Shown: piece by piece, positions 16,794 to 52,922 of the stretch
Layout of the letters: each line of letters begins with the position of its first letter
Numbering within the stretch: position 1 is the stretch's first letter
Program-made: the position numbers and the translations under genes
DNA from: Vezdaea acicularis
Lineage: Eukaryota
Length of the DNA: 64,000 nucleotides
Assembly: GCA_026025075.1 (NCBI GenBank)
Contig: JAPEUI010000052.1
Coordinates: 1 to 64,000 of the forward strand
Direction: 5' to 3'
Notes under the pieces: model-generated
Database searches by the model: none
Told to the model about the DNA's origin: nothing
What the model saw: the letters and a program-made list of their open reading frames with translations, nothing else

Positions 16794-17235
16794 GGCTCCT
16801 GGCGTCTGGATTTCTCTAGGAAAAAGGGGGTGTGGGTGTATCATGCATAATTTAAGACCTGCAAACAGGGAATGTCTGGCTTTAGATCTGGGGTTGGAGC
16901 AGAGCGGCGTTCAGTCTGGCGTCTCGGCGCTTTATCTGGAAAATGGAGAGGAGGCCTCTGTTTTTCTCTCTATCACTTTTAATCGGTCTCTGGGGAGGAG
17001 ACGGGGGTGCAGAGATGATTCTCGTACCTCCCCCCTTCCCTTGTCTATAGGAAATACACGAACTCCAAAACCATCTCATACAGAAGTGGGAGACGAAGGG
17101 GGGAAAGGGCTGTGATGAGCAAGCTGGAATTGGGTATCAGGGCGGAGAGAGAGAGAAATCAGCCACGAGATTCAATTCTAAACAAACCCACCCCCCCCAC
17201 CCCCCTTGTCTCCCTTCACCCCACCCCCACTACCC

Positions 17236-17550
17236 CTATTTACCCCCCCTCCCCCTCTCCTCCCTCTCCCGCCTCTCCCGTTCCCTCCACTCCCTCTCCT
17301 CCCTCTCCCTTCTCCTCTCCCTCTCCAGCTCCCACTCCCTCTCCCTCTTCACCGCCTCATCATCCCTCTTCTTCAGATCCGACACCCTATACTCACAGCC
17401 CGGACACGACCCCTGAATATCCACCGGCTCTCGCACCGAGGTCTGGCAAGCGGGTATACTTCCATCGCGCATCTTTGGTTGGCAGAAGACCCAGTGGTGT
17501 CCGTAGGTGTGCCCGCAGAGTAGGAAGTGTTTGAATACGGTTTTGCACAT
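17236..17550 (-). CDS. Met-Cys Cys-rich microprotein A (104 aa, Glu/Arg-rich tail)
   Basis: MC-x9-CGH-x8-C-x11-C-x13-CPGC; TATATAA about 70 bp upstream on the minus strand; spacing shared with paralogues. Confidence 0.75.
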   Translation of the reverse strand: MCKTVFKHFLLCGHTYGHHWVFCQPKMRDGSIPACQTSVREPVDIQGSCPGCEYRVSDLKKRDDEAVKREREWELERERRREREEREWRERERREREERGRGGK

Positions 17551-17960
17551 TGTGGGGTGGGGTGGGATGAGGTCGGGTGGTTTGGTTCGGTTTTAGGGGA
17601 AAGGCGTGCTGAGTTGTTATATAGGAGGAAAGTGAGTCAGTGGGATTGTTTGCGTGTGTTGCTGGCGGGGAAGGAGGGGGGGCCGCGTGCTTGGATGGCG
17701 GCTGGATGGCAAGGAGAGGTCAGCTGAAGCGAGTGCGAGGTGACGGGATAGTCCAGGGGAGGTGAGTTGGAAGCGAGTGTGAAGTAGTTGACACCAAAAG
17801 CACAGAATGAGAGCCGTCATCAGGTTGCAACCAGTCCACCCAATCTCACATTGCCACCGTTCATTCCCAACTGGCAATACCCTACCTAATGCAAACCCCT
17901 TCTATTTCAAACGCCAAACCTCCTATTGTCCAAACATCCCCACTCCTTTCCGCAACCTCC

Positions 17961-18188
17961 TTATTCTCGTCTCGGCGTCCTCGCTTCATTCTGCCCTTGA
18001 CCCCTCCTCCTCTCATGTCTTGGGTGACATCCTGCAGAGCAATATCCCGTGACGATGGTGCCGACCTCGTAGACGGGTACCATGCAGGGTGGCTCGATGC
18101 CCGCTTCGATGGCCCCGCGGCAATACTCCCACCGCGGCGAGGTGTAGTGGCCACATGTTGTGTAGTAGGTGCGGAGGATTTTGCACAT
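17961..18188 (-). CDS. Met-Cys Cys-rich microprotein B (75 aa)
   Basis: MC-x9-CGH-x8-C-x11-C-x14-CSAGC; AAAATG context; tandem with A. Confidence 0.75.
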   Translation of the reverse strand: MCKILRTYYTTCGHYTSPRWEYCRGAIEAGIEPPCMVPVYEVGTIVTGYCSAGCHPRHERRRGQGQNEARTPRRE

Positions 18189-19402
18189 TTTTGGAAAAGC
18201 TGGTGGTAATTTATTTGGGACTGGAGGCTGAATATTTGGAGAGTGTCAGGGAAATGAGGGAGATTCAGGAGAAAGCCAGGAGCGTGGTTCAACGATTATA
18301 AAAGATGTCCCCGAAGAAGGACTGACGGATGAATGAATGACGGTATTGCTGGCTTTACTGGCGGTGATGGTTTCAGTGGATTGAGTCAGCGTGATTGTGT
18401 TTGTGCTGAAGATGGTGAAGAAAATTGCTCAGCTGTTGTATGTGTTGGTACCTTTAGAGCACTAACCTTGGACGTGTTAGGGTCTGGACTTTGTTGTTCA
18501 CTATGGGTGAATTTGCTTGGTAACCATACTTAATCAAATCTGTCAATGAAGTCATCTCATTACACTGACAACTATGTGAATACGCCCATGATAATTGAGT
18601 ACCCCCGAGGGCTGTGGAGATCGTGATTTCCAGGATCTGGTGTTCTGTCCTAATAGCCATATTGTACAAGAGCTTGGAGGGTCGTGTGGGATATGAAGCC
18701 CAGGGAGCGCCCATCCGTTGGACTGTGCAGGGTGGTTTTGGTGAAGGGGCGAGAGAGAGTGGAGAAGATAAAGGAAAAGGTTAAGATGAGACATGGGGAA
18801 AGGAACGAAATGAGGCAGATAGGGCCCGGCGTAAGGGCGTATTGGTAATGCGGGAAAAGATTCGATATACTGCCTGTCAAGCCAGCAATGGACCTGCTGA
18901 GAAGTGATAACAGAAAATTTTCGCCAGGAGAGTTTAGAAATATGGGCATGAACCGTATCATCACCACATGAAGGTACTACAAGCAGCTCTTGCATACTGA
19001 GGGCAGACGAATAGCCTTTCTATATGGAATATAGAAGGATTCATCCTAGTGCGAGATTTCTCATGATAGACTAAGGAACAACTGATTCTGCGTAAGAATC
19101 TTGCCGGCGTGTACAGAACAAAACAACTCTGTATGCGACCCACAGTGGAATGCTAAGAATGCTCATTCACTTCTTGCAAAAGGAAAGTGAAAGGAGCACT
19201 CGTGTCAAGCCGAGCTTACCAGAGAGACACAACAAGGCCACATAGACTCCAGTAGCGCCGCGCTCCTTCGCCCCTTACATCCGCCCTAAAACTTCTCATC
19301 TACAGCTTTCTTTGCAGAACTCATCAATATGATACCGCATGCGCTCATATGCCCCTATCAGCGCATCCTTTACTCCCCTTTATGATGAACCGAAAAGTCT
19401 CC

Positions 19403-19956
19403 TCAAACCGTATTGTCATCGTAGTAAAAGCTTATGTCTCGTGGCCTCAGCGTGTTTCGTCGAACAAAGTCCTCGTCGCCAGGCGGTCGTTCCTTTTTCG
19501 TGTTGCCCGTCAACATGCTTTGAATGCTCATGCATATGCTCTCGACGTTCTGCACGGGACTCCATCCCTGAGCTCCAAGTAGATCGAGGCAGATGATGCC
19601 ATTCGAGTATATGTGGGGATGGATTGGTATTGGGCGAACCGGATCGGTTGATGAGGCAAATGTTACTTCGGGGGCTTCTGTAGAGAGTGTTAGTGACTCT
19701 GTTGGCGCAGCCTCAAAGTTTGTGGATACAAGGCTTGTTAAGAGCAGGAATCAGGATTACACATACCAATAGGGTAAGAAGAAGAGAACTTGAACTTCAG
19801 GCGGTACTCTTCGTTCGCGTAGATTGGATTTCCATCTAACACTTTGATATCCATATACCAGGTCTCTAGATCATCCGCCAGCGCGATGCTGATTCCAGGC
19901 GGAAGATGGTCGTGCATCTTGGAGAGCTCTTTTGCGAGCCTTTTGCTGGCGAACAT
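19403..19956 (-). CDS. UBE2W: Ubiquitin-conjugating enzyme E2, UBE2W-like, one intron
   Basis: MFASKRLAKEL...FKFSSSYPI|EAPEVTF...PIHPHIYSNGIICLDLL..GWSPVQNVESICMSIQSML...FYYDDNTV*; HPH in place of HPN is typical of UBE2W. Confidence 0.85.
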
Positions 19957-20968
19957 GATGGCTAAGTTGTTTGGTGAAGAAGGGTTCCCAATATGTAGCT
20001 AGAACGGTCTATCAGGAGAAGTTGAGGGTTACGGGAATGTCGTGACTTGGGTGGATCACACCCTTGTGATATGCTTTTGCAATTTGAGATTGAGTCACAC
20101 CACCAAGAACAAATGGCGACAAGCAAGACTGACCAGATCTTGAACGCCTGATATATTCGACGGGCCGTTCAAAGCGGGTGCAACCGGGGCGCTTTTACTG
20201 ACGGTGGTTGCCTTGCGGCTAAGATGACTCCAATTCACGGAATTTAGCGGCTTTGGTGGATGCCTGTGATGCCTGAGGTGCTTGAGCCCAAGGTACTAAG
20301 AGTCTAAAGTCTTATAACATTGAAATATATCTAAACATAATTCTTAAGCCTGAGATCTAGAGTGCAAGGCGATTCCATAAGATTGAGGAGGCTCATGAGG
20401 TTCTAGAAGCTGCAGTGGTGTGCTCTCCGCGCGTCAAACAGCAATCTCTTGGGTCCGTCCCAGCCTGCACCTCGTCTGCGGCAGGTGTAGCCGGCGGTAC
20501 CGCGGGGCTGAGTATGCCTTGCGATTGCCAAGCCTAGCTCCCCAAAGGTTTCAGCTTTCCCACAGCTATATCTACGATACCTTGAATATCTTCTGCCAGG
20601 AGGCTTAATCTAAAAGATCATCCAGCTGTGTTGGAATTTAAGTGATAACTCTGATTGCCGCTTTCTTCGGTTGCGTCTGTTGGAGACTCATGAGAGGTCG
20701 AGGAGGCACGAAAGTCTATTCCAATCAGCGCTTACGGTCAACGCATTTGTTGTACACGAGCGGGCATTGCTTGCCAACAACCCCTTTCTTGAAACTTCTT
20801 CCCACGTCCCAATTGACTTGTTCCCATATCTGGCTTTTCTTGCTTAGGAGAGCCTGTAAGGCTGGTCCGCATCTGGAAGCATAGGGTATAAGAGGCAGCC
20901 TTTCCCTCCCCAGTTCCCCCCCACATACTTCTTTGCCCAGAGGCCCTTCCGTACTGGATAAGGCCAAC

Positions 20969-22644
<1,676 letters not shown>

Positions 22645-23566
22645 TCGTATTGAAAGAGATGCGATGAGACACATGAACAAGGGCGAGTAGTTTCAGCTTC
22701 CTTCCCAGGAAGCTGGCAATGGCGTTTGTAAGGCATGAGCGAAATGGCACTTGGCACCAGGTTTCTTTCATCCCCATACCTCCTATCCATCGGTAGCATG
22801 GTTCATCCATATGACGAGAAATAAACGGCATAAACCCTTTAGGCTTGCATCTTGCTTGGAAGCCCCGTGTTTACCATATTTTGTGCAGTATGTTCATTCT
22901 ACGAACATGCCTATACATGACGTTTATTGAATGTGCTTGTGGTAATCTCTATGAGACCGCCCACTTTCTTCTCTCTTCTTTGTGGCCTGTGGTACTTTAC
23001 TTTTCTTATATCATCGAGTGAGAACTTTATAAGTTTCCACCCCTGAGGCCTTCATGAGTCCAGCGCACCCTATGCCCGTGGCGTTGGTAAAAGGCTCGTA
23101 CGATTTCCAATCGATCTCGACACCTCTGGCTGGAGCTGGACGAGTAGCTTGTTTGTGAATACCATCGACAAAGTCTCTTTGAATTCTTGTCGCTGTGAAA
23201 GAAGATAAGAGATCTAAGATTCGGGCAAATACAAGAGAAATGCAGAAGGGAAGGATTCTATGCTGCGGTCAGCGGATCCAATCATCATTGTTGAGGGTAC
23301 TCCGGAGAATCACTCCCTTTAGTAACGATTTTGAACGTTCTGATGGTAAAAAGGTATTACGTCTATATGAAGGCATTGTAGGCTCTGAAAATTGAAAGAG
23401 GTAGACGGCCCATAGCTTCCGAGTCCGACACGTTATGGCAGCCAGGAACTTGACAGCCCGGGCGGCCTCACACAAAGCGACAAAGACTCATTTGGAATGC
23501 AGCTAAGGCAAAATTATCTGAAAATGCAATAGGAGACTCATTAAAAGAATAGGAAAGAACCGCAGG

Positions 23567-23577
23567 GGAATCGAACC
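23567..23577 (-). promoter_or_regulatory. Isolated RNA Pol III B-box-like motif GGTTCGATTCC (no complete tRNA)
   Basis: Plus strand GGAATCGAACC; a flanking AACCGC/GCGGTT pair encloses only about 40 nt and there is no clear D-arm. Confidence 0.3.
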
Positions 23578-23988
23578 TTCACGTTGCTTTTGATCAGCCG
23601 AAAGCGGTTAGGAGCTCGAAGTCACTCTACCTCCATGTGTTTGCCGACAACCCTCGTCTCCGCTTCAGTCCTCTCCCTTCTCACGGCACAAAAGACAGGA
23701 TATCGCTATTGAAGATGTGCAATAAGGGACAAGAAGATTTGCAAAAAGGAGCTTTCAGCTCTGACCGTTCCTAATTGATCAATCCGTATGAGACATCAGC
23801 CCGTAGACGCGTGCTTAGGATATGGCACTCGCTCAACTGGCCATCGGTGTGGGGAGAAGGTGGACGGGTCAAGGGCACCAGATACAAAGTATCTAAGACA
23901 TGCCCAAGTCGCCACTCGATCAAGAACCCATCGTGATATTAGGAAACGGCCCGCTTCCCCAACTACGACACAGGGACTGAAAACTGAG

Positions 23989-24696
23989 CTAGTACTTTCC
24001 GCCACAAAAATGGCATATATACCCCACCACTGCGTCTTGCTCCATTTGGCTACTCGTGCATTCAACGGAGGGCAATAGATGCACCTGCACTAGTTCTTCA
24101 AAACAACTACGATCATGCGACGCATTGTTCAGACAATTGATATGCGTACACACTGCACTGAACACTGCCGTGTCTTGCATATGCAGCTCTATCAATTGCG
24201 GGCGCACGCAAAGCATTCTCGATGAGTTGCAGCTTACCTGTGACTGCGGTGAGTGCTGCAGTTGCGCGAAGTCCAGCCGCTCAACAGAGCTCTTTACATT
24301 ATCTGCATCGTCGACAAGACACGACTGGATTCCTGTAAAGGTGACGGATGACGAAGTCCACTTCTTCAGCTCGAGAAGATCCGCCTTGTCGTCTTCGTGG
24401 CGCACTTCCAGAGCAATTTCCCCAGGTGTTCCTGCACGAGTGAGGGATCTGAATGACACGAGGAGAATGCGGGTGCTATTAGTATTGCGTTGGTGGGCAT
24501 CGGTATCAAACTCCATTCCCATACAAATCGAGCCCTTCAAAGCTAATACCCGTTCCAAAGAGGCGGAACTAAGGCTGACTTCTCTCATGTGCTGCATAAT
24601 ACGTATAGTTTGGCCATTGCTGCTGCACCTGGGACTCAGGGGATTATTTCTGTGCAAGCAGGCTTGAGAGACAACCATATCTAGGATGCGCTTCAA
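23989..24696 (-). CDS. Orphan ORF or gene relic (235 codons), no recognised domain
   Basis: Long open frame ending GYICHFCGGKY; overlapped by an antisense ORF, so strand and reality are uncertain. Confidence 0.25.
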   Translation of the reverse strand: MKRILDMVVSQACLHRNNPLSPRCSSNGQTIRIMQHMREVSLSSASLERVLALKGSICMGMEFDTDAHQRNTNSTRILLVSFRSLTRAGTPGEIALEVRHEDDKADLLELKKWTSSSVTFTGIQSCLVDDADNVKSSVERLDFAQLQHSPQSQVSCNSSRMLCVRPQLIELHMQDTAVFSAVCTHINCLNNASHDRSCFEELVQVHLLPSVECTSSQMEQDAVVGYICHFCGGKY

Positions 24697-25135
24697 GCAA
24701 GATATGGCGGAGTGGATTGACTCTAGAGAACGAGACGTGCCAGAGCATTATTTGCGCCGGAAGGGATGGTTACCATAAGGTGTATGATCGCATATAACGT
24801 CGGATGATCCCTGAAGGACAGTTGAGGGAAACAATGCTGTAGGTCTTAGGGATCTCTTTATCTCATTACGATAAGCTGCTCTTTGTTAGCATTGCACATA
24901 GCATGCGAACAAGTCAACTCCCTTGTCTACGTCCTGATCATGCATTGTTCACGCCGAATCGCTTGGGTATAAGTAACCACCCCTTTTCTAATACTGCCCT
25001 CCCATACGCAAACTATTCCTTAAGCAACCGCAATTGCTAAGCAAAGATACTTCCATAAGATTCAATCGCGAATATCCAAGAAAACATACGACGAAAACAT
25101 ACGCCAACAATATACGCAAACAATATACACCGACA

Positions 25136-25312
25136 ATGTGTCAAATACTCATGCACATGTTTTCTTGCGGCTGCGTCGGTGATTCTATTTACGTTGCATG
25201 CTATAATGCTATGAAGACTGGAAAGTATTGCCCGAAAGAGCAGTGTCAAGATGTCCTTGGTCATATCGATCTCCCCTGCGACGGGATAATGTGCAGACCG
25301 CCTAGAAAATAG
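25136..25312 (+). CDS. Met-Cys Cys-rich microprotein C (58 aa)
   Basis: ATG at 25136 (ACAATG) inside the listed ORF 25034; MC-x8-CGC-x8-C-x9-C-x15-CDGIMC; A/C-rich leader; TATAAG near 24968. Confidence 0.72.
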   Translation: MCQILMHMFSCGCVGDSIYVACYNAMKTGKYCPKEQCQDVLGHIDLPCDGIMCRPPRK

Positions 25313-26648
25313 GAGTACAGTGTCCTTGAAGAGTTGGGAAGAAGCAGTCAAGTGAGCGCAAAGGCTTTGAATGGTAAAGATCAGGATAGAATTATATGGG
25401 GGAAATTAAAATCAAGAGGGTCATCAGGTTCCTTTAGCTGAGTCAATGAATACCTTTATGGCTCGGTATCCCTTTGTCTCGTGCTGCTGCTGATTCTTTG
25501 TGTCTTCTCTCAGAACTTTTGAATGCTTAGCCTCTAAGTCTATGTGCTTGTCGATGAATTTTTTGTGAATCGAAAGCCAGCCAAGCTTTCTAGCTCATCG
25601 TGTGTTCCTCGTCTCATGATATTATGGTCCAAGGTCTCCCTAAACTTAATCCCTAACTAGTGTGCAACTGGCGAGAACTCTGCTGAAGCCACATACACTT
25701 AGAACAGACTTTGTACAAAAATAGTGGAACTAACCTGCGCGCTTCTACACTCATTTATTTCGCCTCTAAAGGCGCTCAAGTTCGCTTGGTTTGGAGTTGG
25801 CGAGCAGGCCCAAGGGCTTTTCTCTCGCCATGCTCGATTTTTTTAGCACCGGTAATAGCAAGAGCAGATCAATTCGCAAGATCAACGCATAAATCATCCG
25901 AATCACTGATTTTCCCTAGATTCATAACCTGCCTCTATACAATTGCTGGGCGCCCCCTAGAACATTGCTAGACTTTGTGGCCGGCCATAAGAGGTCTCTT
26001 TAAATCCTAGGACTCGATTCGTTGTCCATCACGAGCCAGCCCATGAAATCGGTCCTAATACGCCTACGCGGAACACGAGAAAAATCTCCAAAAAAAGCCA
26101 TTGAAAGACCGCTGGCAAACTTCTCACTAGCCTCCGAACCACGACCCATGGAGCCAGCATACACTTGAGTGTGATCATACCGGCCAGGCTCACGGATCGA
26201 CGTTATCGAAGGAATCACCCAAGGCCAGCCCTCGTAGGAAAGTGGAACGCGCAAGGGTTTCAGGGAGAGCATCCACGCGGGATATTGATCTAACAGTCGA
26301 GGAGATAAAGTTCGTTTCTTGTAATGATGCGACACTCTCTACCCTCAACTGGGACCAGAGTAGCCTGTATCAAGTTGCAGAAATTCTCTATGATATAAGA
26401 TCGATCAACGAAAGGCGTGATCGTCTTCGCCCGAGGATCACCGATTCATCTAATGTTCCTTTGGCAAAGTTTGTCAGACATGCACTGAGAATTTCCTAAT
26501 TCTGATCGTAGAACAGCGATGTTTTGCGTACCCATCACTCTGTAATTGAGAGAGTCTCTTCTCATTTCTCTATCTGCTGCTTGGGACTTATACTAGATCT
26601 TCCACCTGTCTAGCTTCATGTCTCCATAAGAAGTTTAATCCTTTTCGT

Positions 26649-27048
26649 TCAACCCATGGCGAAACTTTGGGCCCATGAAAACCAGCTCCCAGCAGGAACT
26701 ACGGCGCCAAACTGTCTTGACTGAGTTGCTGCCGCCCAAGACCCTAGATCATTCAATCTATCAGCTATTCGATTCAATAAATGCAGCAATTCATATTGCC
26801 ATACCGCTAGATACACCTCCAAGGTGAAATCCAAGAAGGCTTAGCAAAATTCTCAGTAAGATACTTGAGAACGCCACAAGCGCGATTATGACAACAACGG
26901 AGAGAACTAGCATGGGGGCTTCAGCGATCAGGTCGACCGCAGAGTTGGTGATAGTACTAAAGACATTGAGGACGGCGCTCACGCCTTTTAGGACGGCTTT
27001 GCCGATCGTTTTTGTGATTTCGACCGTTTTGGAGACGAAGGAGCCCAT
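26649..27048 (-). CDS. ISG12/IFI6/IFI27-like small hydrophobic membrane protein (about 112 aa, intron 26804-26744)
   Basis: Splicing G|GTATGG...GCTGAT...TAG|GG joins two ORFs into LLGFHLGGVSSGSWAAATQSRQFGAVVPAGSWFSWAQSFAMG*; upstream TM segment; TATAAAA near 27091-27097 on minus. Confidence 0.75.
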
Positions 27049-27925
27049 TTTTACTATTGTATTTGCTGGCTTCGTCGATCTGGAGCGAGCTTTTATAGAG
27101 TCAAGAAGGGGTCCAGATCAAGCGCACTGAAGTCTCAGGCCTTTTACAAAATCTGTATCTAAGACCCAAGCATGAAAAGATGATTTAGGAAGATGGAGAG
27201 GAAACAGACAGAAAAAGAAGGTAATTCGGTGCTTGAAGTATCGGAGCGTGCTGCAAACGAATGGCGGTTACGTGCAGAATAAAGGAGACGAATCGCAGTG
27301 TGCGTTCAAGACTTAGGACTCTCTAAGGAACTCCCTATGTAAGGTCCAGAGGGTCAAAGTTCTCCAAAGAGTTGCCACTCGATGATTCTAGGGTACCTGC
27401 TGCCAAAATGGTCATAACGCGCAGCATTTAGAGAGGGACAACATTGTTGTCGTACGCTTGAAGCGAGCCCCAGCCTATCTACATTGTCAAATGCTAGTGC
27501 TCTCAGTTTCGAGTTTCTTTCTCCTTCTCAATATGCTTTCTCGGTAAACTATAGACTGAAGTACCTCTTCTAGCCAACTCTGATCGAAGTAGCCAGTTTG
27601 AAGAGCTGTAAGTGTCTGCTAGAGTACAGTCGTACCAAATCTACGCTAAATCCCTTGCCCCACAGCTGCCCCCTATCTGCGCCGGTTGAAGAGCTTGTGC
27701 GCATCCTTGTTTGGTTCACATTTAGGGCTCTATAGTTAAGGAAACAAGCAAGTTAGATCCAACAGGATGTGTCCCAGAACTGACTTTTACATACACAGGT
27801 TGTCCCAAGGCAAACTAAAACACAGTTCTTCAAGCGACTCTGAGATCTGACAAAGCGTCTTGGTTTTGGTCGGCATATCTCAGTACGTCTAAAGCGGAAC
27901 CCCTCAAATCGGAAACCAACACAAA

Positions 27926-28252
27926 ATGGTCAAACGCCTTCATTCACTTCTTAGTTCTGTCAAAAATCGGGTCTCTTCTTCTAACATGTATAAAAAGATC
28001 AAGAAGGAACAAGAAGAAGAGACGAGTGAAGACCAAGGTGTTCGAATGAAAATACAACTAGAGGAGCTAGAGAAAAGAATGGCCAATGTAAACTTCATCG
28101 TAGAAGATCTTCGCATTGCCATTGAAAAGGACGAACGTAACCTTGCTATGATGAAGGCATGCTTCTATCGGATGCTAGAAAGACGTCATGCGGTGAGGGA
28201 GGAACTTATTGGGTTTAGGGCATTGCTTAACGAAATGTGTGGAGGCAACTAG
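27926..28252 (+). CDS. Orphan coiled-coil protein (108 aa)
   Basis: AAAATG start; heptad-like MKIQLEELEKRMANVNFIVEDLRIAIEKDERNL. Confidence 0.5.
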   Translation: MVKRLHSLLSSVKNRVSSSNMYKKIKKEQEEETSEDQGVRMKIQLEELEKRMANVNFIVEDLRIAIEKDERNLAMMKACFYRMLERRHAVREELIGFRALLNEMCGGN

Positions 28253-28657
28253 TCATGCATGTCGACGCTCTTGTTGCCGAACACAGCTTTCTTCATTTGA
28301 TCGTGTTTCACGTTTCCTTCCCATGATCACTACTTCTGTGGTTCGAGAAGCGTCTTTAATATGCACACTTGCATAGTCTTTTCTAGTTGTATTGATCTTC
28401 AAAGCATCAGTTCTTACAAGGCAAACATTCATAGCTAGTAGTGCTTTCGTTACTAGTTTCCGTTCTCAGTATCAGAGGGATGTGTGTATTCACTTCACAG
28501 CTCAAAGGTGTATGTTCACTTCAGAGCTTCAAGGAGAATATAAATGCTGCCTCAACGATGGCTTTCGAGTCTATCTTCTTAGCCATTTGCAATCATTCTT
28601 GATAATTGGTATCCAACATTCTGAGGCATATCTACTACCTAAATCCCTACAACATTC

Positions 28658-28852
28658 ATGTGTAGACTCATTCTATTCATATTCCCGTGCCAATGCCCCC
28701 GGACAATGATCCCGGACCAATGCGCCAACGCGGAACGCAGATACTTCCCAAACAGGGATAGGCTGTGTGGAAACATCAAAAATACGGTGCAATACATGAG
28801 TGGGCCTTGTGGGGATCCGAGGTGCCCGAGTAACGGGTTGGAGGATGCATAG
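28658..28852 (+). CDS. Met-Cys Cys-rich microprotein D (64 aa)
   Basis: MC-x8-CQC-x8-C-x14-C-x13-CGDPRC; TATAAA near 28539. Confidence 0.72.
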   Translation: MCRLILFIFPCQCPRTMIPDQCANAERRYFPNRDRLCGNIKNTVQYMSGPCGDPRCPSNGLEDA

Positions 28853-28901
28853 CCCAGCTATTCAAGAATGAGCGGCTAGATAGAGCAATCAAGCACTCTT
28901 A

Positions 28902-28981
28902 CAGTTGGGGGGCAAAAGTCTGAATACACCTTGGCCTCGCTTCACGCGCCGAAGTGTATTCAGACTTCTGCCCCCCCACTA
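28902..28981. mobile_element. 80-bp Tc1/mariner-type MITE, impala/mimp-like
   Basis: 28-bp TIRs CAGTTGGGGGGCAAAAGTCTGAATACAC (28902-28929) and its complement (28954-28981), 25/28 identical; TA on both sides (28900-28901, 28982-28983); 24-nt spacer. Confidence 0.85.
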
Positions 28982-29275
28982 TAACCAAACACCAACCTTC
29001 CGAGTCGGGACATCTGTTGTGCATCTGAGTGAGCTAGTTAGCATTTAGTTTGTAACTTGCGTAGAACAGCACTTCTCCCGATAACTAGAGTTGCTCATAC
29101 ATGACTCAGTCTAGGGAGTGCAAGCGCTGCAGAGAAAGTTCAATTATTGGTCAAAAAGGGGGTTGTACCATTCCCATTAGATCCATATTTCCTCTTACAC
29201 TAGTCAACCAAATAGAACTCTACCAAGCTTTATAACGTAAAACAACAGGCGTATACATCCATCTCAACAGCAAAC

Positions 29276-29566
29276 ATGTGCACCACTGCAGTACCCAAAT
29301 ATAAGTGTGGATATACTACTCAAGGCAAGCTGCTCAAGTGTAGAGATAGATCAAACCTTGACTACTGCTCGTCCCTCAGCTTTGTGCAATGGTTGGAGGT
29401 ACAGGTACGACATATGGCAGCGCAAGAGTCTTGGGGAGATGCAAAGAAGCGACGGGGCAGGAAGATCCTTTGTCATAAGGGGCGATTCGTAGTTGATATA
29501 AAGCACAGACGAATGGACACTCAAAAAGACCGGAAACTGCATATCTTATGGGGTATAATGCGGTAA
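29276..29566 (+). pseudogene. Met-Cys microprotein E, probably degenerate or frameshifted
   Basis: MC-x8-CGY-x8-C-x8-C matches the family start; the terminal Cys pair is absent in frame, and GRCKE lies in another frame at 29434-29448. Confidence 0.5.
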
Positions 29567-29583
29567 AATACAGAGCCTTCTAC

Positions 29584-30084
29584 CTAGCTGCTAGCTACAG
29601 CAATTTGGTTCTCCTCGTGATGCATTATAAGCCCGGTCAAGACAACCTCATCCAACATATCTGGCGACAGATCTTCGTAAATCTCAAAGATGCCCGCCTT
29701 AGTCCAAGCGTAGCACTTGGCGATAAAGCTTGCAACGATCCGGCCAGTGTTTCCATCTATGCAGTTGAAGTTGCTGGAGAATGTGCCGGCGGACTTCCAG
29801 AAGAGGATGCCCCGCTTGCTTCGGATTGTACGCGTGCGGGAGAACATATCCTCTCTCTTGTAATTGACTTCACGTCCACCAATGTTGCAATTGACTTTTG
29901 AGGAGAAAGTGTGGAAGGTACCCGTGCCGGCCGGTGACCCTGACCCAGCACGGGTAAGGATTACATTGGGTCTGGAAAAGCTGTGGTTTACGAGAGTGTA
30001 GAGTGGGGTGGTTTTGTCCGTGTCGAATAAGTTGATATCACTCCACTTTTCGTAGCAGTGGATCTGTCTAATAGACTGCGCCAT
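29584..30084 (-). CDS. DUF6593-like (Tubby/LURP-like fold) protein, 166 aa
   Basis: TPLYTL...RPNVILTR...LFWKS...CIDGNTGRIVASF...KAGIFEIYEDLSPDMLDEVVLTGLIM: alternating beta strands plus a terminal hydrophobic helix. Confidence 0.65.
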   Translation of the reverse strand: MAQSIRQIHCYEKWSDINLFDTDKTTPLYTLVNHSFSRPNVILTRAGSGSPAGTGTFHTFSSKVNCNIGGREVNYKREDMFSRTRTIRSKRGILFWKSAGTFSSNFNCIDGNTGRIVASFIAKCYAWTKAGIFEIYEDLSPDMLDEVVLTGLIMHHEENQIAVASS

Positions 30085-30971
30085 TCTCTCTGCGGTTCCT
30101 TTTCTAGCTTCGAACGCGCCAAACAGATACTCTGTCTAGTATAAACTTCACAGGTTTTGAAAGAAAGCTTTTCGTGACCTTAGTGCTTGAATGTTCCCAG
30201 GTCGGCGATATCACTTGGAGGGGGCTGACTAAAATGTTGTGGAGACTTTAATTCGAGGGTATGACTTGAGCACTTGATTTGAAGGGTTTGGAAATCCTCG
30301 ACTATCTAACGTACATTGGTTCGTATCTATATAGATGGTTTCTTTGGCGATCGTTGTTTTCGTGGTCGTGGCTTCGAGAATGGAGGGGACCGCTGCGCCG
30401 CTTACATAGCCCGTGCCGATCTGTCGATCATCACGAACCGTTCGGTTCGAAGCTTACGAAAACGCGTCATTGCCCAGACGACTTGTCTTGGCCTGAGATA
30501 GTTCTGGCTTATGTCAGCGGCCCCTGCGTACGGCTGAAAGTCAAGCGCGAGATCGAAACCACACTACAAGCTGTGCACCCCGAAAGTCGTGTGTATCCTT
30601 CATTCACCGGGAGAAAGTTTCTTCGAGATAGCAGTTGCGGCAGGAAAGGCATTACTATCTGGTCCGGTATGGTTTTCGAGAAAACTGCAATATCTTCCGA
30701 ACGCTAGGATGAAGATATGTTAGGTAGAATTGTAGAAAATGAGGTTGAAAGCTGACACATAATGAGCCTGCGGATTGTACGCCAAGATTGTTTGAAATCT
30801 GGAAAATGAGATCTTGATTCAGCAAATATTCCGAGCCACATGCCGAAAATGATTCGCGAATGGATGTGCTATCCATTCACTCCCTTTACGTTGAGGAGTT
30901 ATATTTCGAGCGAGTCATAGTACCATGACTTTCATTGGCATTAGAAGGTATACATTCATACAGGAGCCTCA

Positions 30972-31262
30972 ATGTGCAAACTTGTAACTCCAAGATACGA
31001 GCTCTGTGGCTGCTTTGTTGCCGGAAGCCTCCAGCTTTGCGGCGGATATCTCTCGGCACTCACCGGTAATCAGAAGTGCGGGATGCTATGGAAAGAATGT
31101 CGTTGGGTCGAGGGCTTGTGTTTTAAGCATCGAAAGATTACGAGGAGCAACAGCGGAATGATCGAGAGAGGAGGGGTGCTAGAGGGTTACGTGCCCAAGT
31201 GTTGGCAGTTCGCTGCCTATGCTAAGAAAGATGGAGTCAGCAAGATGAATGCAATAGGATGA
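30972..31262 (+). CDS. Met-Cys Cys-rich microprotein F (96 aa)
   Basis: MC-x9-CGC-x8-C-x12-C-x13-CFKH. Confidence 0.68.
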   Translation: MCKLVTPRYELCGCFVAGSLQLCGGYLSALTGNQKCGMLWKECRWVEGLCFKHRKITRSNSGMIERGGVLEGYVPKCWQFAAYAKKDGVSKMNAIG

Positions 31263-31397: not shown

Positions 31398-32048
31398 TCA
31401 GCCGCTGTTAAGGCTCCCTAGCCTGTCAAAGGAGTTCACCCCTATCCCGAGTGCTGTATCAACGTCAGATCTTCTCCGGCCCTCCCTCCGCTCCACATAT
31501 CTGTTCAGGCCATCTAGCCGTGCGCTAGACGTGGTCTTCCGCCGAAAGATATTGTTCACAATCTCGATACACCTCTTGACACCCACTCCGTAAAATGCGT
31601 CACCATACCACCATAAGTCTTTGCAGGAATCATCGTCTCCTAGACCACGTTCTTTCCATCTATGCAATAGAATTGTTAAGACGGGGTTTCGTGCCATATC
31701 CCGTTCAAACCTCCTCCAGCTGTCCTCGCAAATGCAATTCGCACGACAATATTCCAGTAGCGCATCTCCGGTAAAAAACACTTCGCCTGCCTCAGGAGCA
31801 CGTCCGATACGCAATTTGCCATCTTGAGGATTACATTCCAGACGGTTGTAAAGGTTGACATGGGTCGAGAGTCTACAAAGCTCCGTAAGACTGTTCATTG
31901 GGCCTCGGCCGTTGAAGAAGTGACTTGGAATCGATTGAAGCTCAGCAGGAATTGGACCGAAGCAGACAATATCATCAAATGCCACGATAGGAGAGAACAA
32001 GGACATAATGAGCAAACCAAGGAGGATGCGAAATGGGGGATAGGCCAT
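31398..32048 (-). CDS. Secreted six-Cys-domain protein (effector-like), 216 aa
   Basis: Signal peptide MAYPPFRILLGLLIMSLFSPIVA; IVCFGPIP...LTELC...LECNP...YCRANCIC; TATATAA near 32152-32158 on minus; paralogue at 59792. Confidence 0.75.
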   Translation of the reverse strand: MAYPPFRILLGLLIMSLFSPIVAFDDIVCFGPIPAELQSIPSHFFNGRGPMNSLTELCRLSTHVNLYNRLECNPQDGKLRIGRAPEAGEVFFTGDALLEYCRANCICEDSWRRFERDMARNPVLTILLHRWKERGLGDDDSCKDLWWYGDAFYGVGVKRCIEIVNNIFRRKTTSSARLDGLNRYVERREGRRRSDVDTALGIGVNSFDRLGSLNSG

Positions 32049-41159: not shown

Positions 41160-44100
41160 ATGAGCTCCAGGTCTGAGGAGACGGATGGCGCCGTTGATGA
41201 CGAAGACGTTGAGGAAGTGACAACGGCACTAGCCGGTCGGGAGTCAGCTGGGCTTTCGGAAGATAGTCAGAATGGTGGGGATAGGGGGCAGCCTGACATT
41301 GGACGTCTTGCGGAAGAGGAAAGAGACAGAGTCCGAACAACCTACTCTAACGGCTCTACGTTCAAGGGCTATAGCTCAGTAGAGCACGAAGATGGCAGCG
41401 TGGACCAGGGCGATTTGGAGCCACGTAGTGGTTCTCCTGGGAAACTTTCACCGAGCATTGATGATTCCTTATCATTACCAGACGACACACCATCGGTGCA
41501 GGTAAGACCTCATGTTTGACCTTGGAGGTACTGCGAACTCTGACATTTGTAGGGCTCGATTTTGTCATCTCCAGGGAGTAGTACATTCCCATCTCAAGCA
41601 AGGCTGTTATCGGGAAGCCCTACGCCCTCGCTCATGCCGTTTGACCGACGCTTCTCGTCTCGACTGCCTTCATCGCATTTGAGCTCCCCCCGCGCTACTT
41701 CTCCTGCATTTCTCAGCAATCACTCTCGCCAAGTATCTCTTTCAAGCCAGGTGGCACCAGAAGAAAGCGATAAAGATGCTTCATCGGCCCCTTGGGAGGT
41801 TGTGCGCTGGACTAAGCTGAAGCGAATATCAGGGCAAGCCTTTTCAGAGGTCACAAAACGAAAGTTTGGAGTCCCCACATGTATATCTGCTTCAGCTTCG
41901 ATTGTAATAGGCACCTCAAAGGGTATTATACTTATTTTTGACTACAACCAAGCGCTCAAATCAATTATTGGGCCTGGGACGAAGGCATTGGAATCGGGAG
42001 CTATCACATCTGTTGCCATTTCTGCGGACCATAGTACCGTTGCCGGTGGACATGCCCATGGGGACATATTTACGTGGGAGATTGCCAGAGCTGCGAAGCC
42101 ATTCCTGCACATCCCCCACCTCGAACCAGGCCAACTCCAAGCTCGAAAGGTCGACGGCCATACGCCTGGTGTTGCTATTATACATATCGGCTTTCTTGGA
42201 ACAAGACACACTGCTATCGTGTCTGCGGACGACAGGGGAATGGCCTTCTCCCACCTAGCCAGTCGTGGCCTTGGGGCTGTCGCGCGTATGGTCAAGACTA
42301 CTCGTATCTTAGGCCGCTATCCTGAGAGTGTTCCCACAGTTGTTCGACCAAGGAAACCAAGCTCCATCTTAGCATTTTCACCTTTACCCCTTGGAAATGC
42401 AGAGCAAGTGACAGATGACATGGGCTTAGTAGCCATGCTGACCCCTTTTCTTCTCGTGATTGTATCAACCACGCCCATCGCACAGACTCAACATAAAGCC
42501 GCGAGGCCGAAAGATATACCTGCTCACGCTACTCTAAGCGGCTGCTTAGCCTGGTTCCCATCTGTCAAGCTCAAGACGAAAAGCGCATCCGAGACCAACC
42601 CAGTATCTAGAACAAAACTAGTATACTGCTGGTCTAATATTCTGACGATCCTGGAAGTCACGGAAGCGGAGCAGTCAGCGCCCTTGGAGAATGATCGCCC
42701 TCCAAGTCTTCAGTTCCGAGCTCGAAGTAGATGGAAAGCTGAGGAGGCAATTGTTGCGGTGCAATGGCTAGGAAGATCGATTATTGGCGTTCTTACAATC
42801 ACACAGCAGCTGATCATACTAGAGGATGGTTCTATGCGCATGACTGATGCATTTGATATCATGCACAGGCAAATATATCACCGAGATCTCTTCTCCAAAC
42901 AGCTCCAAACGCTTGTGGAACAACTCGATGACGAGGACGCTTCTATGCATGGAGTTGTAGCGGATGCTTTTTTCGGAAGTTTCAGGGCCTATAAAGGGAG
43001 GATATTTCTTCTAGGTAATAATGACGTCTCAATGGGAACGTTGTCAAACTGGGCCGATAGACTACTGGCATTAATGGAGGATGGGGATTTTGTAGGAGCC
43101 ATACGACTGGCAACCTCTTATTATACCGGGAACGGAGAGAAGCTGATGGTGGGACTCCCTGAGGATAATGAATTAAGACACCCGGTGGTAGAAAGCAAGG
43201 TGTACGAAATGATGTCGGCGTCACTGAAGTATGCTTTGGGACAGAAGAAGGGCACGACGAGCCGGAGCATGGATGCCTCTCAATTGCAAGAGTTGGCAAA
43301 CGCCTGTATCATTGCCTGCGTAAGCATGGATGCCATGGACTATCTTTTCGAGGATGTCTTTGAAAGATACGACGAGGGTTCGTTAGGTGGTATCCTCCTC
43401 GAGGCTTTAGAGCCATACATTCTGGACGGCCAGATCAAATCTATTCCGCCCGTGGTCTTGAAGGAGCTTGTCACGTACTTCACGTCGAAGAACCTTGACA
43501 GCCGACTGGAAGATATGATCTGCAACCTGGAAACGTCGACAATGGATATTGATCAGGTCACCGCGCTCTGTAAGGATCACCGCCTGTACGACGCTCTTAT
43601 ATACGTCTGGAATCAGGCCCTCGGCGACTACATCACGCCCATGATAAACCTCCTATCACTTCTTCTACCACCCAGTGGCTCGAAGACGATGTCAAATGGT
43701 GAACCTTCACACGAGTTTCGAAATGTTACGAATGCGTCGAAAATATTCCCGTACCTTGCGTATACCTTCACGAGCCGTGTATATCCCACAGGAGAAACAA
43801 TGGACCCCGAAAAGGCTGCGAAAGCCAAAGCTGAGGTGTACTACGTCCTTTTCTCTGGACGGACCATCACATGGCCAACGGTCGGAGGAAAGCCTTTCCT
43901 CACTCAACAGAGCGGTAAAGACGAGCCTCCATATCCGTATCTCCAGATGATTCTACATTTCGATGCGCCAAGCCTTTTGAGCGCACTGAACGAAGCATTC
44001 GAGGATGGCTTCCTTAATGGTGCTACCGACCGGCTTGTCAATGGAGGCTCGCAGAATGATATCAGCGAGGAACAAGTCTTTGGGCTCGCCGTTACCCGGC

Positions 44101-46127
44101 AACTGATTGTCAGCATTTTACTGGAGACCATGAACCCTAAGCAGTTTCCTCCGGAGGACACCATATACCTAGATATGTTTGTTGCACGAAACTTGCCCAA
44201 GTTTCCCCAGTTCATACTGCTCTCTGGAAGCGCCATTCAGCGTGTACTTGCAGGTCTCTGCAATTATCCCGGTGATGATATCGCAGAAGACTGCCAGCTG
44301 AGCGTCGAGTATCTCCTCTCGACACACCATCCGTCAGATCTAGAGTCCCTCATACCTCTTTTCGAAAAGGCTCGGTTCTTCCGGGTCCTAAAGTTTACTT
44401 TCAGGACCGAGAAGAAATACGCCAGACTACTTCAAACCTACTTTGACGACCAAGAGAATCTCATGGACGTCTTCGAGTGCATCGCTGACTGTCTGCGCCC
44501 CGGAGCCGGCCTCACGGAGAAGCAGCAGCGCGAAGTCCACAGCGTCATCCAGTCCCACGCGCGAGACCTTGCAGATATCGACGCCGTAAGGTCCGCCCAA
44601 ACGATCGAGACATACGCCCCAGCGCTACACCACGACATTCTCTCAGCCCTCGAAGGAGAGCCATATACAGAGTTCACCTACCTGCAAGCAATCCTTGAAC
44701 CTAAATCCCCCGCCGACAACACACCTTCACTGTCACTTGAAGGCCGCGCTTCTGAGCTTATCGAGCGCTACGTCCAATTGATGTGCCGATACGCCGCGTC
44801 GCACGTCGCAGACTTCATCTCACACCTACACAGCGCCTCTCTCCGCCTCGAAGCTGTTCTCCCGGCCATGGAGTCCAGCGGCGTAGTCGACGCCGCGGTC
44901 GTGCTGATGGCACGCGAAGGTCAGGTGCGCGCCGCGATGGACCGTCTGCTCGCGCACCTATCGACGCTTGAATCCGCGCTGCTAGGCCTGCTGCGCGCCT
45001 CGGACGACAGCCCAGACCCCGATAACACGGACGAGGCAACCGACGACATCCTGGCTGCTATCCAGAAATACACACAAGTAGGCATCTGGCTGTGCCAGGG
45101 GCAGAGCAAAGCCGCCGCCGCTGCTAAGGCGATGCAACCGCCTACAATTACAAGCGTATCAGGCCCGCCCCGCCATCCCAAACGCTCCTCCTCCCTCAAA
45201 AAGGGGCAGGCGGACCTCACGGCCGACGAAACGCTCTGGCTTGACCTCCTGTCATCGACGGTGCGCACCACGCGCCTCGCCTCAGTCCTCACCTCTCCTC
45301 TCCCAAACAGCACCGACGACCAATCCAGCGCCCCATCCCCCACAACCGCAACTTTGACTGCCCCTACTGCCCTTCGCCAAACAGTCCAAGCAGCATTCAC
45401 CGCCCTCCTCCAAACGACCTCTTCCCCCCCTTCCAGCGCACCCACCCACACGCGCATTCGATTCCTCCCCATCCTCACCGCGCTCCTCACTTCCCTCTCT
45501 ACCTCCACCTCCGCCTCCGCTTCCTCCTCTTCTCCCTCCCTCGCAGAACTGCGCCAAGTCCTACAAACCATCTTCGCGGCCTACGCCTACGAAGAGGGCA
45601 TGCTCCGCCTTGCAGAGGGTCTTTTGGAAAGCGACCTCTTCCTCAGCGTGGACGAGCTACGACGCGGGCGAGAACGCGGATGGAAAGCACGGAGCGTGGC
45701 CTGTGAAGGCTGCGGGAGACGCGTGTGGGGCGCCGGGGCGGGTGGAGGCGTGTGGGAGCAGTGGGAGAAGCGGAGGCGGGAGGACAAGAGGGCGAGCAGG
45801 TGGCGGAACATAGGGCAGGGAGGCACAAGCCTAGGAAGTGAGCGCCGGTCAGGAGAAGGCAGCGGAAAAGGCAAGGCTGTCGTATCTCGCAATACCGCTG
45901 ATACCGCGCTAGAGCACCCTTCTTCAGCGAGTGTGCCCGAGGGGAGTCCAACGCAGCCAGATAACGCCGGCAACGCAAACGCCCAAGAAGGAGAAGAAGA
46001 AGATCTCGGCCCCTTAGTGGTCTTCGCTTGCCGCCATATATTCCATCGTGGCTGTCTCCAGAAATTACTCAGGAAAGACGGGGAGGCGCCGCTTTCGGCC
46101 GAGCTAAGGTGTCTGGTGTGTAAATAG
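41160..46127 (+). CDS. VPS8: CORVET subunit Vps8, one 5' intron (about 41502-41551)
   Basis: Beta-propeller N-terminus (IVIGTSKGIILIFDY), Vps8 core LEPYILDGQI...LCKDHRLYDALIYVWN..LGDYITP, C-terminal RING-like CEGC...CRHIFHRGC...CLVC. Confidence 0.93.
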
Positions 46128-46605
46128 GGGGTCTTGTGTCGTTGTAGCTTTTTCCATGTGGAAATGGAAATGGGAAGGCGGTCGCGTCTGTTAGAGAGAT
46201 GGTTGTTTCGTGTTTGTTCAAGATGGTTTTGTGGTTGTTGTGAGATATAGGTGTTTCGAGTTGTCACAGGGGAGTGGTTGGGCAGCAAGAGATAAATGGG
46301 CAATGTCAGCTACAGCGTATCACAGCGTCTCACGGCATATTCATCAACTTGGTCATAAAATGACACCCTACCGAATCCATTGGGTGTGTCTAACTTCCCC
46401 CTATTCCACTACTTTTTTTTTGTCTATATTTTTTTGGTTTTTTTGTCTTTTCGGAAGAGTTGCGCCAAACTCATAATTCCGTTTTCCAATTTCTTACCCT
46501 TTCCTCCATCTCCATAACAATATTGGATTTTCATTCTGTTCGGCCCACCGCCCCTCCTCCCACGATCCTCCTTTCCCCCTTTCCCCTTTGCGCTTCTGCA
46601 CCCTC

Positions 46606-47124
46606 TCACCACCCAAGCTTTCCCCCAACGACTCGAAGAACACCTTCTCCATACGGCTCGGGTCCGAACTCTACTGCTTTCGGTGCTAGTCCATCGATGA
46701 ATTCCACCAGCCCGGGAACGGTGGCATAGTCGGCCTCTGTGGCGGGTCGCCAGCGCGGCTCGCCGTTGTTGTCTGGCTGGAGAGGGATGTATACCAGCAT
46801 GTATTCTTTCTTGCCGGTCCGTTCGACGCCGACGTCGAAGTGCGGGAGGTAGTCTAGCTGGGCTTCGAACTCGTTTTGGGCGGAGCAAGTGGTGGGAGAG
46901 TGACCGCCAGGTGTATTGCTAGTCGGGTCTAAAGCTGGAATCGTCGTGGTTTCTGCGGTGGATGTGTTGCCGAAATCGGTGACCCATTCGGCTTCGGCAT
47001 CAATGGATTCCGAAATGATTGCCGCTTTCTTGTCACTCTCGGAGAACTGCTGGTTTGGGGCGAGCATTTCCCAATCGCTAAGCTCTTCTGTGGTCTTGTT
47101 GTCGTAGCGGTTTGAAGCGGACAT
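46606..47124 (-). CDS. Orphan acidic protein (172 aa)
   Basis: AAAATG at 47124; TATATAA near 47299-47305 on minus; globular-looking C-terminus LDYLPHFDVG...YMLVYIPLQP...RWRPAT. Confidence 0.6.
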   Translation of the reverse strand: MSASNRYDNKTTEELSDWEMLAPNQQFSESDKKAAIISESIDAEAEWVTDFGNTSTAETTTIPALDPTSNTPGGHSPTTCSAQNEFEAQLDYLPHFDVGVERTGKKEYMLVYIPLQPDNNGEPRWRPATEADYATVPGLVEFIDGLAPKAVEFGPEPYGEGVLRVVGGKLGW

Positions 47125-47353
47125 TTTTTCATTGGAGGAGGTGATGTCTTTTTTCCTTTGCTGAATCGATCGGAAAGGTTTCTTTTTGGTTTTGCGTATT
47201 GAAGGCAAAAGAAGGCGATGTCGAAGCAAGAGTTGTTGCAAGAGTGTGTGCTTTGTTAAAAAAAAAGAACTCCCCCCCCCCCAGAATAGGAGCCCATCTT
47301 ATATATCCCGGCCCGCGCAAAGTTCGGGTGTTCTGCGCTGTGTTCTTGTGTTC

Positions 47354-47461
47354 TTGTGTTGTCTTGTATTTCTGTGTTGTCTCGTACCTTTGTACTGTCT
47401 CGTATCATCGTACTGTCCTGTACCATCGTGTTGTCCTGTACTATCGTATTGTCCTGTGGGT
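47354..47461. repeat. Degenerate 18-bp minisatellite, 6 copies
   Basis: ttgtgttgtcttgtattt / ctgtgttgtctcgtacct / ttgtactgtctcgtatca / tcgtactgtcctgtacca / tcgtgttgtcctgtacta / tcgtattgtcctgtgggt. Confidence 0.8.
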
Positions 47462-47582
47462 GTATTGCCTGTGTTCTCTCATTGTTTTCTTCTCGCGTTG
47501 TTGTATCGTTTCGGTGTAGAATACCGATGGTGTGGATGGAGTGGTGCAGAACAAAGACATTTCTCACATATGAACAATCCAA

Positions 47583-47605
47583 CCCCCCCCCCCCCCCCCC
47601 CCCCC
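47583..47605. repeat. Poly-C tract (about 23 nt)
   Basis: Read directly. Confidence 0.9.
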
Positions 47606-52600: not shown

Positions 52601-52922
52601 GGACCTGGCTCCCCGCTCTCGCTCTTGCGCCGGCCGACCTCGATACGCTCCCTTCGAGATCTCTTGGCCGTCGCGTGCGCAGGACAGGACAAGCAATCTA
52701 GCTCCGGACGTTGGGGCGAGGCACAACCCATCTGCATGAGAAACGCCGGGACGCCACTCGAGCGACTCCTTCGACTCGGTTCGTTGTGCACCCAGCGGGC
52801 GACCGCCCTGGTTTATACGTCCGGAAGACCCTCCACTTCTGCTTCACCTTGTCCATCTGTTCACCTCCCTGGACTGAACTGTTCCTCTCCCCCTCCCCTT
52901 GCCGAGATACTCTTCGTACGCA

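Follow-up and report, generated by a model that had tools for sequence, protein, structure and literature searches.

Six Met-Cys open reading frames of a Vezdaea acicularis contig as probable members of a widespread family of putatively zinc-folded microproteins

Within 14 kb of a Vezdaea acicularis contig (JAPEUI010000052.1, positions 1 to 64,000; hereafter the window, meaning the whole 64,000-nucleotide stretch that was analyzed) lie six short open reading frames (ORFs) whose products all begin with Met-Cys and carry further Cys residues at similar intervals. Are these frames genes, do they belong to one family, and what might their products do? An initial annotation, made from the nucleotide sequence alone, had proposed a locally expanded and diversifying family of metal-binding microproteins. 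The analysis reported here suggests, with moderate confidence, that the six are genes of one family, or in part copies in decay. This family is widespread but appears to be undescribed; its microproteins are eukaryotic, most likely from ascomycetes, and their chains would fold around zinc.

The ORF listing (ATG starts, standard code) contains all six ATG-to-stop frames, here called A-F, at the positions originally reported and with the reported lengths of 58-104 amino acids (aa) (Table 1). The Met of Met-Cys is the first ATG downstream of a stop codon in each of them. The second Cys is residue 11 or 12 and is followed, after one intervening residue, by His in A and B, Cys in C, D and F, and Tyr in E. 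The third Cys lies exactly 11 positions past the second in all six proteins, and the fourth another 8-14 residues on (11 residues in A and B). The Met-Cys start and these three Cys spacings had been described in the initial annotation, and each holds in 6/6 frames. Its description of a C-x2/4-[CH] ending in five proteins, usually as G-x-C, was likewise accurate: the terminal C-x2-4-[CH] is absent only from E, and G-x precedes it in four of the other five. This pair is C-x2-C in A, C-x3-C followed by His in B, C-x4-C in C and D, and C-x2-H in F, and its offset from the third Cys is 25-28 residues in the five proteins (25-26 in A and B). One shared feature had escaped the earlier account, namely that position 9 is aromatic in all six.

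Outside these positions the proteins have little in common, as had been remarked. Alignment of the six sequences left Met1, Cys2, Cys12 and Cys23 invariant, with identities to A of 17-36%; an alignment limited to the five proteins with a complete domain added Cys35 and Cys50 to the invariant set. No DNA-level repeat linking the six loci was found, and the invariant Cys codons are a mixture of TGC and TGT between copies. The lack of a DNA repeat, together with the mixed Cys codons, indicates that the similarity has been maintained at the protein level and does not reflect copied DNA.

The N-terminal domain of A comprises residues 1-52 (17395-17550) and is followed by an Arg/Glu-rich tail, which is a translated low-complexity polypurine tract; this long tail may be incidental. 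The same C/T-rich tract also yields a Pro/Ser-rich ORF antisense to A. ORF B, which lies in tandem with A on the same strand, has a basic tail. E keeps the first four Cys only, and no terminal Cys pair was found for it in any frame, spliced C-terminal knuckles included. Judged by eye only, none of A-F has a signal peptide; D has a short hydrophobic run after Met-Cys-Arg. Cys accounts for 6-14% of residues, from 6/104 in A up to 8/58 in C, with at most one C-x-C per protein.

The initial annotation had named an equal frequency of the pattern in shuffled sequence as grounds for abandoning the family. When the window is translated in six frames, six matches to the core pattern MC-x8,9-C-x-[HCY]-x8-C are obtained, versus a mean of 0.003 and a maximum of 1 in 300 second-order Markov versions of the window. 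The full pattern also matches six times, and in none of the same 300 shuffles. Because the spacing pattern was read off the data, we added a cruder, pattern-free measure: the window has six ORFs of 50 aa or longer with a Met-Cys start and four or more Cys among residues 1-56, compared to 1.7 on average and 7 at most in 200 shuffles. This result is weaker than the spacing test and points in the same direction. No extra copy was found in the other 50 kb of the window, even when the Met requirement was dropped. The proposed local expansion is thus upheld as clustering (six copies in 14 kb, none in the remaining 50 kb), in a comparison that covers the 64-kb window only.

Relatives were sought with a degenerate DNA back-translation of M-C-x6-[FY]-x1-2-C-G-H-x8-C, in which the gap was allowed to vary from 3 to 6 bases. 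At least 115 loci in metagenome contigs match this pattern; all metagenome counts given below (116 matches, 106 in frame, 72 unique) are among the matches listed. The gap was 3 bases in 81 and 6 bases in 25 of the 116 matches, which are the in-frame lengths (106 in all), and 4 bases in six and 5 bases in four. In a control search of 596 Gb of prokaryote genomes, gaps of 3 and 6 bases were found 22 and 20 times, and gaps of 4 and 5 bases 32 and 46 times, so that 42/120 matches were in frame. Comparison of 106/116 with 42/120 indicates an in-frame excess that is peculiar to the metagenome set. ORFs of 45 aa or more are opened by 78/106 in-frame matches, and 72 of these sequences are unique. Among the complete relatives (n = 54), lengths range from 49 to 132 aa around a median of 64 aa.

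Several features that the pattern did not request recur in these 72 relatives. Of the 72, 57 have the fourth Cys; a C-terminal knuckle is represented by its first Cys in 66 and by its second in 54. Pro directly follows the first knuckle Cys in 22/70 relatives, and Gly stands two residues ahead of it in 22/65. A C-x2-C was found no more than 60 residues past the third Cys in 52/72 relatives, and in 40 of those 52 at offsets of 19-28. At offsets of 15-32 it occurs in 41/72 relatives versus 0/14 prokaryote in-frame ORFs of at least 45 aa. The tails that follow the knuckle are rich in Lys plus Arg (0.20, versus 0.10 for Asp plus Glu), and 18/30 are net positive, a composition that would be compatible with nucleic-acid or nuclear association.

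The relatives also carry signs of a defined start codon and of selection. An in-frame stop lies upstream within the flank in 68/72, and an upstream in-frame ATG was found in only 8/72. At -3, 59 relatives have A, 10 have G (purine in 69/72 altogether) and three have C. Together, these observations argue that the relatives genuinely start at Met-Cys, the first ATG. All 12 pairs with at least 55% identity have a higher proportion of synonymous differences (pS 0.47-1.04) than of nonsynonymous differences (pN 0.12-0.31). The ratio of nonsynonymous to synonymous substitution rates (dN/dS), which the initial annotation had suggested computing, is 0.06-0.35 in the six metagenome pairs with unsaturated dS. 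These values indicate purifying selection on the family in the relatives.

One could still suppose that the window ORFs are chance open frames and not genes, as their codon usage is indistinguishable from that of random small ORFs and five of the six are absent from protein collections. Against this stand six matches where 0.003 are expected and the recurrence of the same architecture in many unrelated contigs, with the in-frame bias, the Kozak-type purine and the excess of pS over pN. We regard the chance origin of the six as very improbable, and for the family as a whole it is effectively refuted.

Three members lie within about 1.5 kb on one 499-kb metagenome contig (L018/L019), two on one strand and one on the opposite strand, the third being open for 35 codons only. 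This trio shows that local clustering is not confined to the V. acicularis window. Two canonical members about 1 Mb apart (L228/L236 and L239) were found in a 6.7-Mb record titled as the chromosome of an actinobacterial metagenome-assembled genome (MAG). The DNA around them is ORF-poor, with 46-50% G+C at L239, and one match to the fungal-type Zn_clus family occurs elsewhere in the record. This DNA looks eukaryotic, and the record is probably chimeric or mis-binned. Matches in two other MAGs (L133 and L233) are family-like too. One group was rejected as members: an identical 25-codon frame at L031, L036, L050, L077, L091, L096, L098 and L206, in which the rest of the domain is missing. Its hosts are several metagenome contigs, one of them titled human gut, and an Alistipes genome, and the frame matches by chance, within bacterial DNA. 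Chance also accounts for the out-of-frame matches that recur in many Collinsella genomes.

How do the six window ORFs relate to this family? A profile built from the 72 metagenome sequences only was searched against the 1324 stop-to-stop ORFs of the window, with the E-values given in Table 1. A and B align with it from end to end, with both the fourth Cys and the G-x-C-P-x-C region covered, whereas C aligns over 55 profile positions and E over the N-terminal 38 only. The search pattern itself required the aromatic position 9, the Cys at 11/12, the third Cys and C-G-H in the relatives. The fourth-Cys spacing (11) and the terminal-pair offsets (25-26) of A and B are the modal values of the family, and these modal Cys positions supply an independent argument for the membership of A and B. 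The initiator Met-Cys at the first ATG, the aromatic residue and the Cys spacing of the family are found in 6/6 window ORFs, and the C-G-H turn, which the pattern demanded of the relatives, in A and B only. On this sequence evidence, A and B appear to be canonical members. We read C, D and F as a diverged local lineage in which His has been replaced by Cys, and E is possibly a truncated, decaying copy. The earlier notion of one family of six therefore holds at the level of a protein family; the six are not equivalent, and only A and B are canonical C-G-H members.

Searches with the six proteins themselves recovered little. None of the six (0/6) reaches a gathering threshold in Pfam-A, and no match to PF00172 (Zn_clus) or to the metallothionein families was obtained up to E 10. 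A profile search of 1.84 billion representatives returned F itself only, as did word-based searches with B, with alignment A2 and with residues 1-58 of A, which are uninformative for such short, diverged proteins. Exact look-up in a 15-billion-protein collection found F alone (P0001, from Logan/ENA), and none of the six from NCBI. An entry identical to the 166-aa DUF6593-like neighbor of E and F exists in NCBI nr, where no other tested ORF from this stretch was found. There is therefore an annotated record of this genome, from which all six are missing in this exact form. The expectation that gene finders would miss several of the ORFs was well founded, with 1/6 in the 15-billion-protein collection. 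The relatives are also mostly uncalled by gene finders, and 1/10 complete relatives is in the same collection.

The relatives led to no named family either. Pfam gave only seven single-member matches to the 72 sequences (up to E 0.01), at E 0.003-0.008 and each to another family, so that the proposed comparison of a profile hidden Markov model with Pfam matched no characterized family convincingly. A profile search of the PDB identified no solved structure, and its matches were at noise level: Aart, a designed C2H2 array, matched at E 0.0041, single stretches of it at E of about 4 or more. The Aart match pairs C-P-x-C turns only, and eS26 and a consensus zinc finger score 0.12. A literature search, with most subscription journals and preprint supplements outside its coverage, returned no description of the Met-Cys family. 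The original statement that no assigned function or description of such a cluster was known agrees with our searches, which found no Pfam family, sequence-detectable solved structure or literature description. In the ESM Atlas, B (0.93, 0.90, 0.89) and residues 1-58 of A (0.83 each) are nearest to the same three Ascomycota clusters, which are labeled 'hypothetical protein', have lengths of 73, 65 and 82 aa and 77, 57 and 55 members, and belong to no Pfam family. We treat this placement as a lead only. It agrees with the occurrence of Met-Cys...C-G-H 'hypothetical proteins' in filamentous ascomycete proteomes. The proteins thus sit unnamed in databases, and the family appears to be undescribed.

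Common to the family is a domain of about 50 residues, counted in every case from the initiator Met, M-C-x6-[YF]-x1-2-C-G-[H/C]-x8-C-x~10-C-x~14-(G-x-)C-(P)-x2-C. In most cases the stop codon comes immediately after it, or else a short tail that is often basic. The chain is predicted to fold around zinc by means of six Cys and one His/Cys. The C-G-H turn and the C-P-x-C turn could form the two zinc knuckles of one Cys3His site. A second site would be built from Cys2 with the third and fourth Cys, and a bridging thiolate, a further His/Cys that varies, or the amine of the N-terminus would complete it. The zinc knuckle in its classic form is the C-P-x-C turn, and zinc ribbons typically have C-P-x-C and C-x-H knuckles. 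Such a protein would serve inside the cell as a small scaffold, and its basic tail may touch nucleic acid or a partner protein. The strictly N-terminal position of the domain is the most unusual feature of the family.

Other uses of the same residues were considered. The proteins could be metallothionein-like metal buffers or thiol-redox proteins instead of structural zinc domains, and their small size, richness in Cys, lack of a signal peptide by eye and the C-x-C in C, D and F would fit such a role. Yet Cys makes up only 6-14% of residues, so that the conserved set has the look of a small folded metal site more than of a metallothionein, and the long fixed spacing and the conserved aromatic, Gly and Pro residues are of the folded-domain type. 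Metallothionein families in Pfam matched neither the six nor the 72 relatives (at the E-value limits given above), and we consider this alternative unlikely. The Cys/His set might instead hold an iron-sulfur cluster, for example a 3Cys-1His 2Fe-2S center. One His among six Cys and the odd ligand count of seven speak for this, and sequence cannot tell metals apart. No Pfam iron-sulfur family was matched, however, His is freely swapped for Cys or Tyr in the local copies, and the two knuckle types are those of zinc ribbons; a cluster of this kind is quite unlikely. A more elaborate proposal, speculative and quite improbable in our view, supposes that the strict placement of the domain at residues 1-2 has a function. 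After removal of Met, the N-terminal Cys would bind metal through its thiolate and its free amine, the latter as the missing eighth ligand, and loss of the metal or oxidation would expose a Cys degron. The proteins would then be regulators with a short life, gated by metal or redox state and diversifying in local clusters, and would correspond in fungi to the Met-Cys sensors of plants and animals.

A number of results weigh against six zinc-folded genes of one fungal family. The profile scores of F and D are not significant, and two unrelated window ORFs score 0.011 and 0.027, leaving C and E borderline. Since A and B served as models for the search pattern, their scores are circular in part. 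A profile of the C-terminal half does not discriminate, ranking A 22nd (E 1.9) and B 122nd, and hhalign of C-F against the family gave 54% probability and E 1.2e-4 over the first 27 columns only. The base at -3 is T in D and F. Codon-usage log-odds of the six, trained on nine housekeeping ORFs of the window that themselves score 0.13-0.24, range from -0.10 to +0.075 per codon, which places them between the 17th and 85th percentiles of 114 random small ORFs. A Pfam scan of the flanks in the metagenome contigs, which are of presumed fungal origin, gave 0 matches (38 of 41 ORFs). In the ESM Atlas, the recognition value for B was 2205, under the 2300 reached by 91% of known families. AlphaFold2 models from the shallow alignments A2 and A3 had mean pLDDT values of 43.1 and 48.8, too low for use of the fold. 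Finally, seven conserved ligands are one short of two classical tetrahedral sites.

Part of this evidence would also be explained if only A and B were working genes, and C-F, or at least D, E and F, were unexpressed and unselected relics of an old local expansion, with open frames and most Cys surviving through recent descent. We hold this possibility to be less likely. It accounts for the weak or non-significant profile scores of C-F, the loss of the terminal Cys pair from E in all frames, and T at -3 in D and F compared to a purine in 69/72 relatives. F also lacks a TATA-like motif and an A/C-rich leader. G+C content at third codon positions (GC3) is raised in A, B and D and not in C or E, and codon usage is like that of random ORFs. 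On the other hand, the frames of C-F are uninterrupted for 58-96 codons from the first ATG, and they keep the aromatic residue 9 and four to eight Cys in register. The exchange of His for Cys, in three copies, is a ligand-conserving change. C, D and F have their terminal C-x2-4-[CH] at the family modal offset, 25-28 residues past the third Cys. Moreover, the Cys residues persist with mixed codons despite the absence of DNA similarity, which is hard to reconcile with a lack of selection over most of their history. We continue to favor six family genes that are in part decaying.

The window is a fungal chromosome segment that carries housekeeping genes (Table 1). ORFs C-F, all on the plus strand, sit at 23-31.4 kb among otherwise unrecognized ORFs plus one DUF6593-like ORF. 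The initial annotation had reported TATA-like boxes and A/C-rich leaders for most of the six. A TATA-like motif indeed lies no more than 200 nucleotides (nt) upstream of five ORFs (A-E, not F), versus 78/438 random 200-nt blocks, and the leaders of A-E have an A+C content of 0.52-0.83 and a G content of 0.07-0.10, whereas the leader of F differs. Its remark that C hides inside a longer ORF corresponds to an overlapping antisense frame of 75 aa.

Other features of the window lie outside these loci or between them. The ORF between E and F reaches DUF6593 just below threshold (25.2 bits versus a cut-off of 27). About 50 nt past the stop codon of D is an inverted repeat of 37 nt, 86% complementary and with a 12-nt loop, which could be a hairpin terminator-like element or the end of a small mobile element. 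A 216-aa ORF beside F encodes a hydrophobic N-terminus and several Cys, matches no Pfam family, and its product may be secreted. Long ORFs of no significant family occupy both strands near 24 kb; the plus-strand frame is Cys-rich and is the source of one of the two pattern matches without Met. From 44000 to 64000, G+C is 0.55-0.62, versus about 0.47-0.50 elsewhere, with many overlapping long ORFs on both strands, and the right third of the window marks a compositional domain boundary.

Table 1. Positions and properties of the six Met-Cys ORFs, their TATA-like motifs and other features of the window.
Feature	Position	Strand	Length	Description	GC3	Base at -3	Profile E-value
ORF A	17236-17550	-	104 aa	canonical C-G-H member	0.76	A	5.7e-10
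ORF B	17961-18188	-	75 aa	canonical C-G-H member	0.67	A	2.3e-8
ORF C	25136-25312	+	58 aa	C-G-C variant, 8 Cys	0.49	A	0.0024
ORF D	28658-28852	+	64 aa	C-Q-C variant	0.63	T	0.97 (not significant)
ORF E	29276-29566	+	96 aa	C-G-Y variant	0.49	A	0.0037
ORF F	30972-31262	+	96 aa	C-G-C variant		T	0.14 (not significant)
TATA-like motif of A	17617-17623	-		71-73 nt upstream
TATA-like motif of B	18296-18300
TATA-like motif of C	24968-24972
TATA-like motif of D	28539-28544
TATA-like motif of E	29231-29235
C/T-rich repeat	17186-17350			encodes the tail of A
ORF antisense to A	17019-17534	+	139-171 aa	Pro/Ser-rich
ORF antisense to C	25037-25264		75 aa	overlaps C
Long ORF	23989-24678	-	229 aa	no significant family
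Long ORF	23993-24667	+	224 aa	no significant family
Inverted repeat	28899-28984		37 nt	past the stop codon of D
DUF6593-like ORF	29584-30084	-	166 aa	between E and F
ORF beside F	31398-32048	-	216 aa	no Pfam family
E2 enzyme	19.4-19.96 kb
Protein kinase	21.7-22.6 kb
Vps8				with fungal-type RING; in window
Origin recognition complex (ORC) subunit				in window
Dynamitin				in window
Rpb3-like subunit				in window
49-kDa NADH dehydrogenase subunit				in window
Alanyl-tRNA synthetase				in window

If the family is as proposed, filamentous fungi carry a sizeable and selectively maintained set of microproteins of about 50-100 residues that lies outside Pfam and the solved structures and is rarely called (one of six here and one of ten relatives in the 15-billion-protein collection). 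It would offer a defined and easily expressed candidate for a new small metal-binding fold, with a Met-Cys requirement that is directly testable. The six ORFs also make a concrete case for better annotation of small ORFs in fungal genomes.

Several known systems resemble the Met-Cys family in part. Fungal copper metallothioneins are likewise very small, contain Cys, lack a signal peptide and are often unannotated. Metallothioneins have dense C-x-C and C-C clusters and a very high Cys content, whereas the Met-Cys proteins have 6-14% Cys, long fixed spacers and conserved positions other than Cys. The Zn2Cys6 binuclear cluster (PF00172) is restricted to fungi, as the Met-Cys family would be, and its six Cys are able to hold two zinc ions through bridging thiolates, a parallel to the arrangement suggested here. 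The Cys spacing of the Met-Cys family is quite different, however, a His is present, the six gave no match to PF00172 up to E 10, and its members are microproteins, whereas PF00172 forms the N-terminus of large transcription factors. In the mitochondrial intermembrane space, the twin Cx9C (CHCH) proteins are also small, with Cys about 9-10 residues apart. In contrast, A, B and F have a single C-x9-C, C-E have C-x8-C, and there is no second Cx9C; the family further differs in its His and its C-x2-C knuckle. [quoted passage not shown] Unlike the Met-Cys proteins, those substrates have no Cys-rich domain; they are defined in addition by a turnover that depends on oxidation and arginylation, and the pathway is described for plants and animals.

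The small zinc-ribbon and treble-clef domains with rubredoxin-type C-P-x-C knuckles also share features with the family. They too comprise about 50 residues with ligands in short turns, and the terminal (G-x-)C-P-x-C, with its Pro in 22/70 relatives, and the basic tail after the domain have counterparts there. The comparison was made by sequence only, and it also brings out differences: the first pair of the Met-Cys domain is C-G-H and not C-x2-C, the ligands number seven and not four, the domain is locked to the extreme N-terminus, and no Pfam zinc finger matches it. We regard the Met-Cys proteins as a new family within a known kind, the small Cys/His metal-binding domains.

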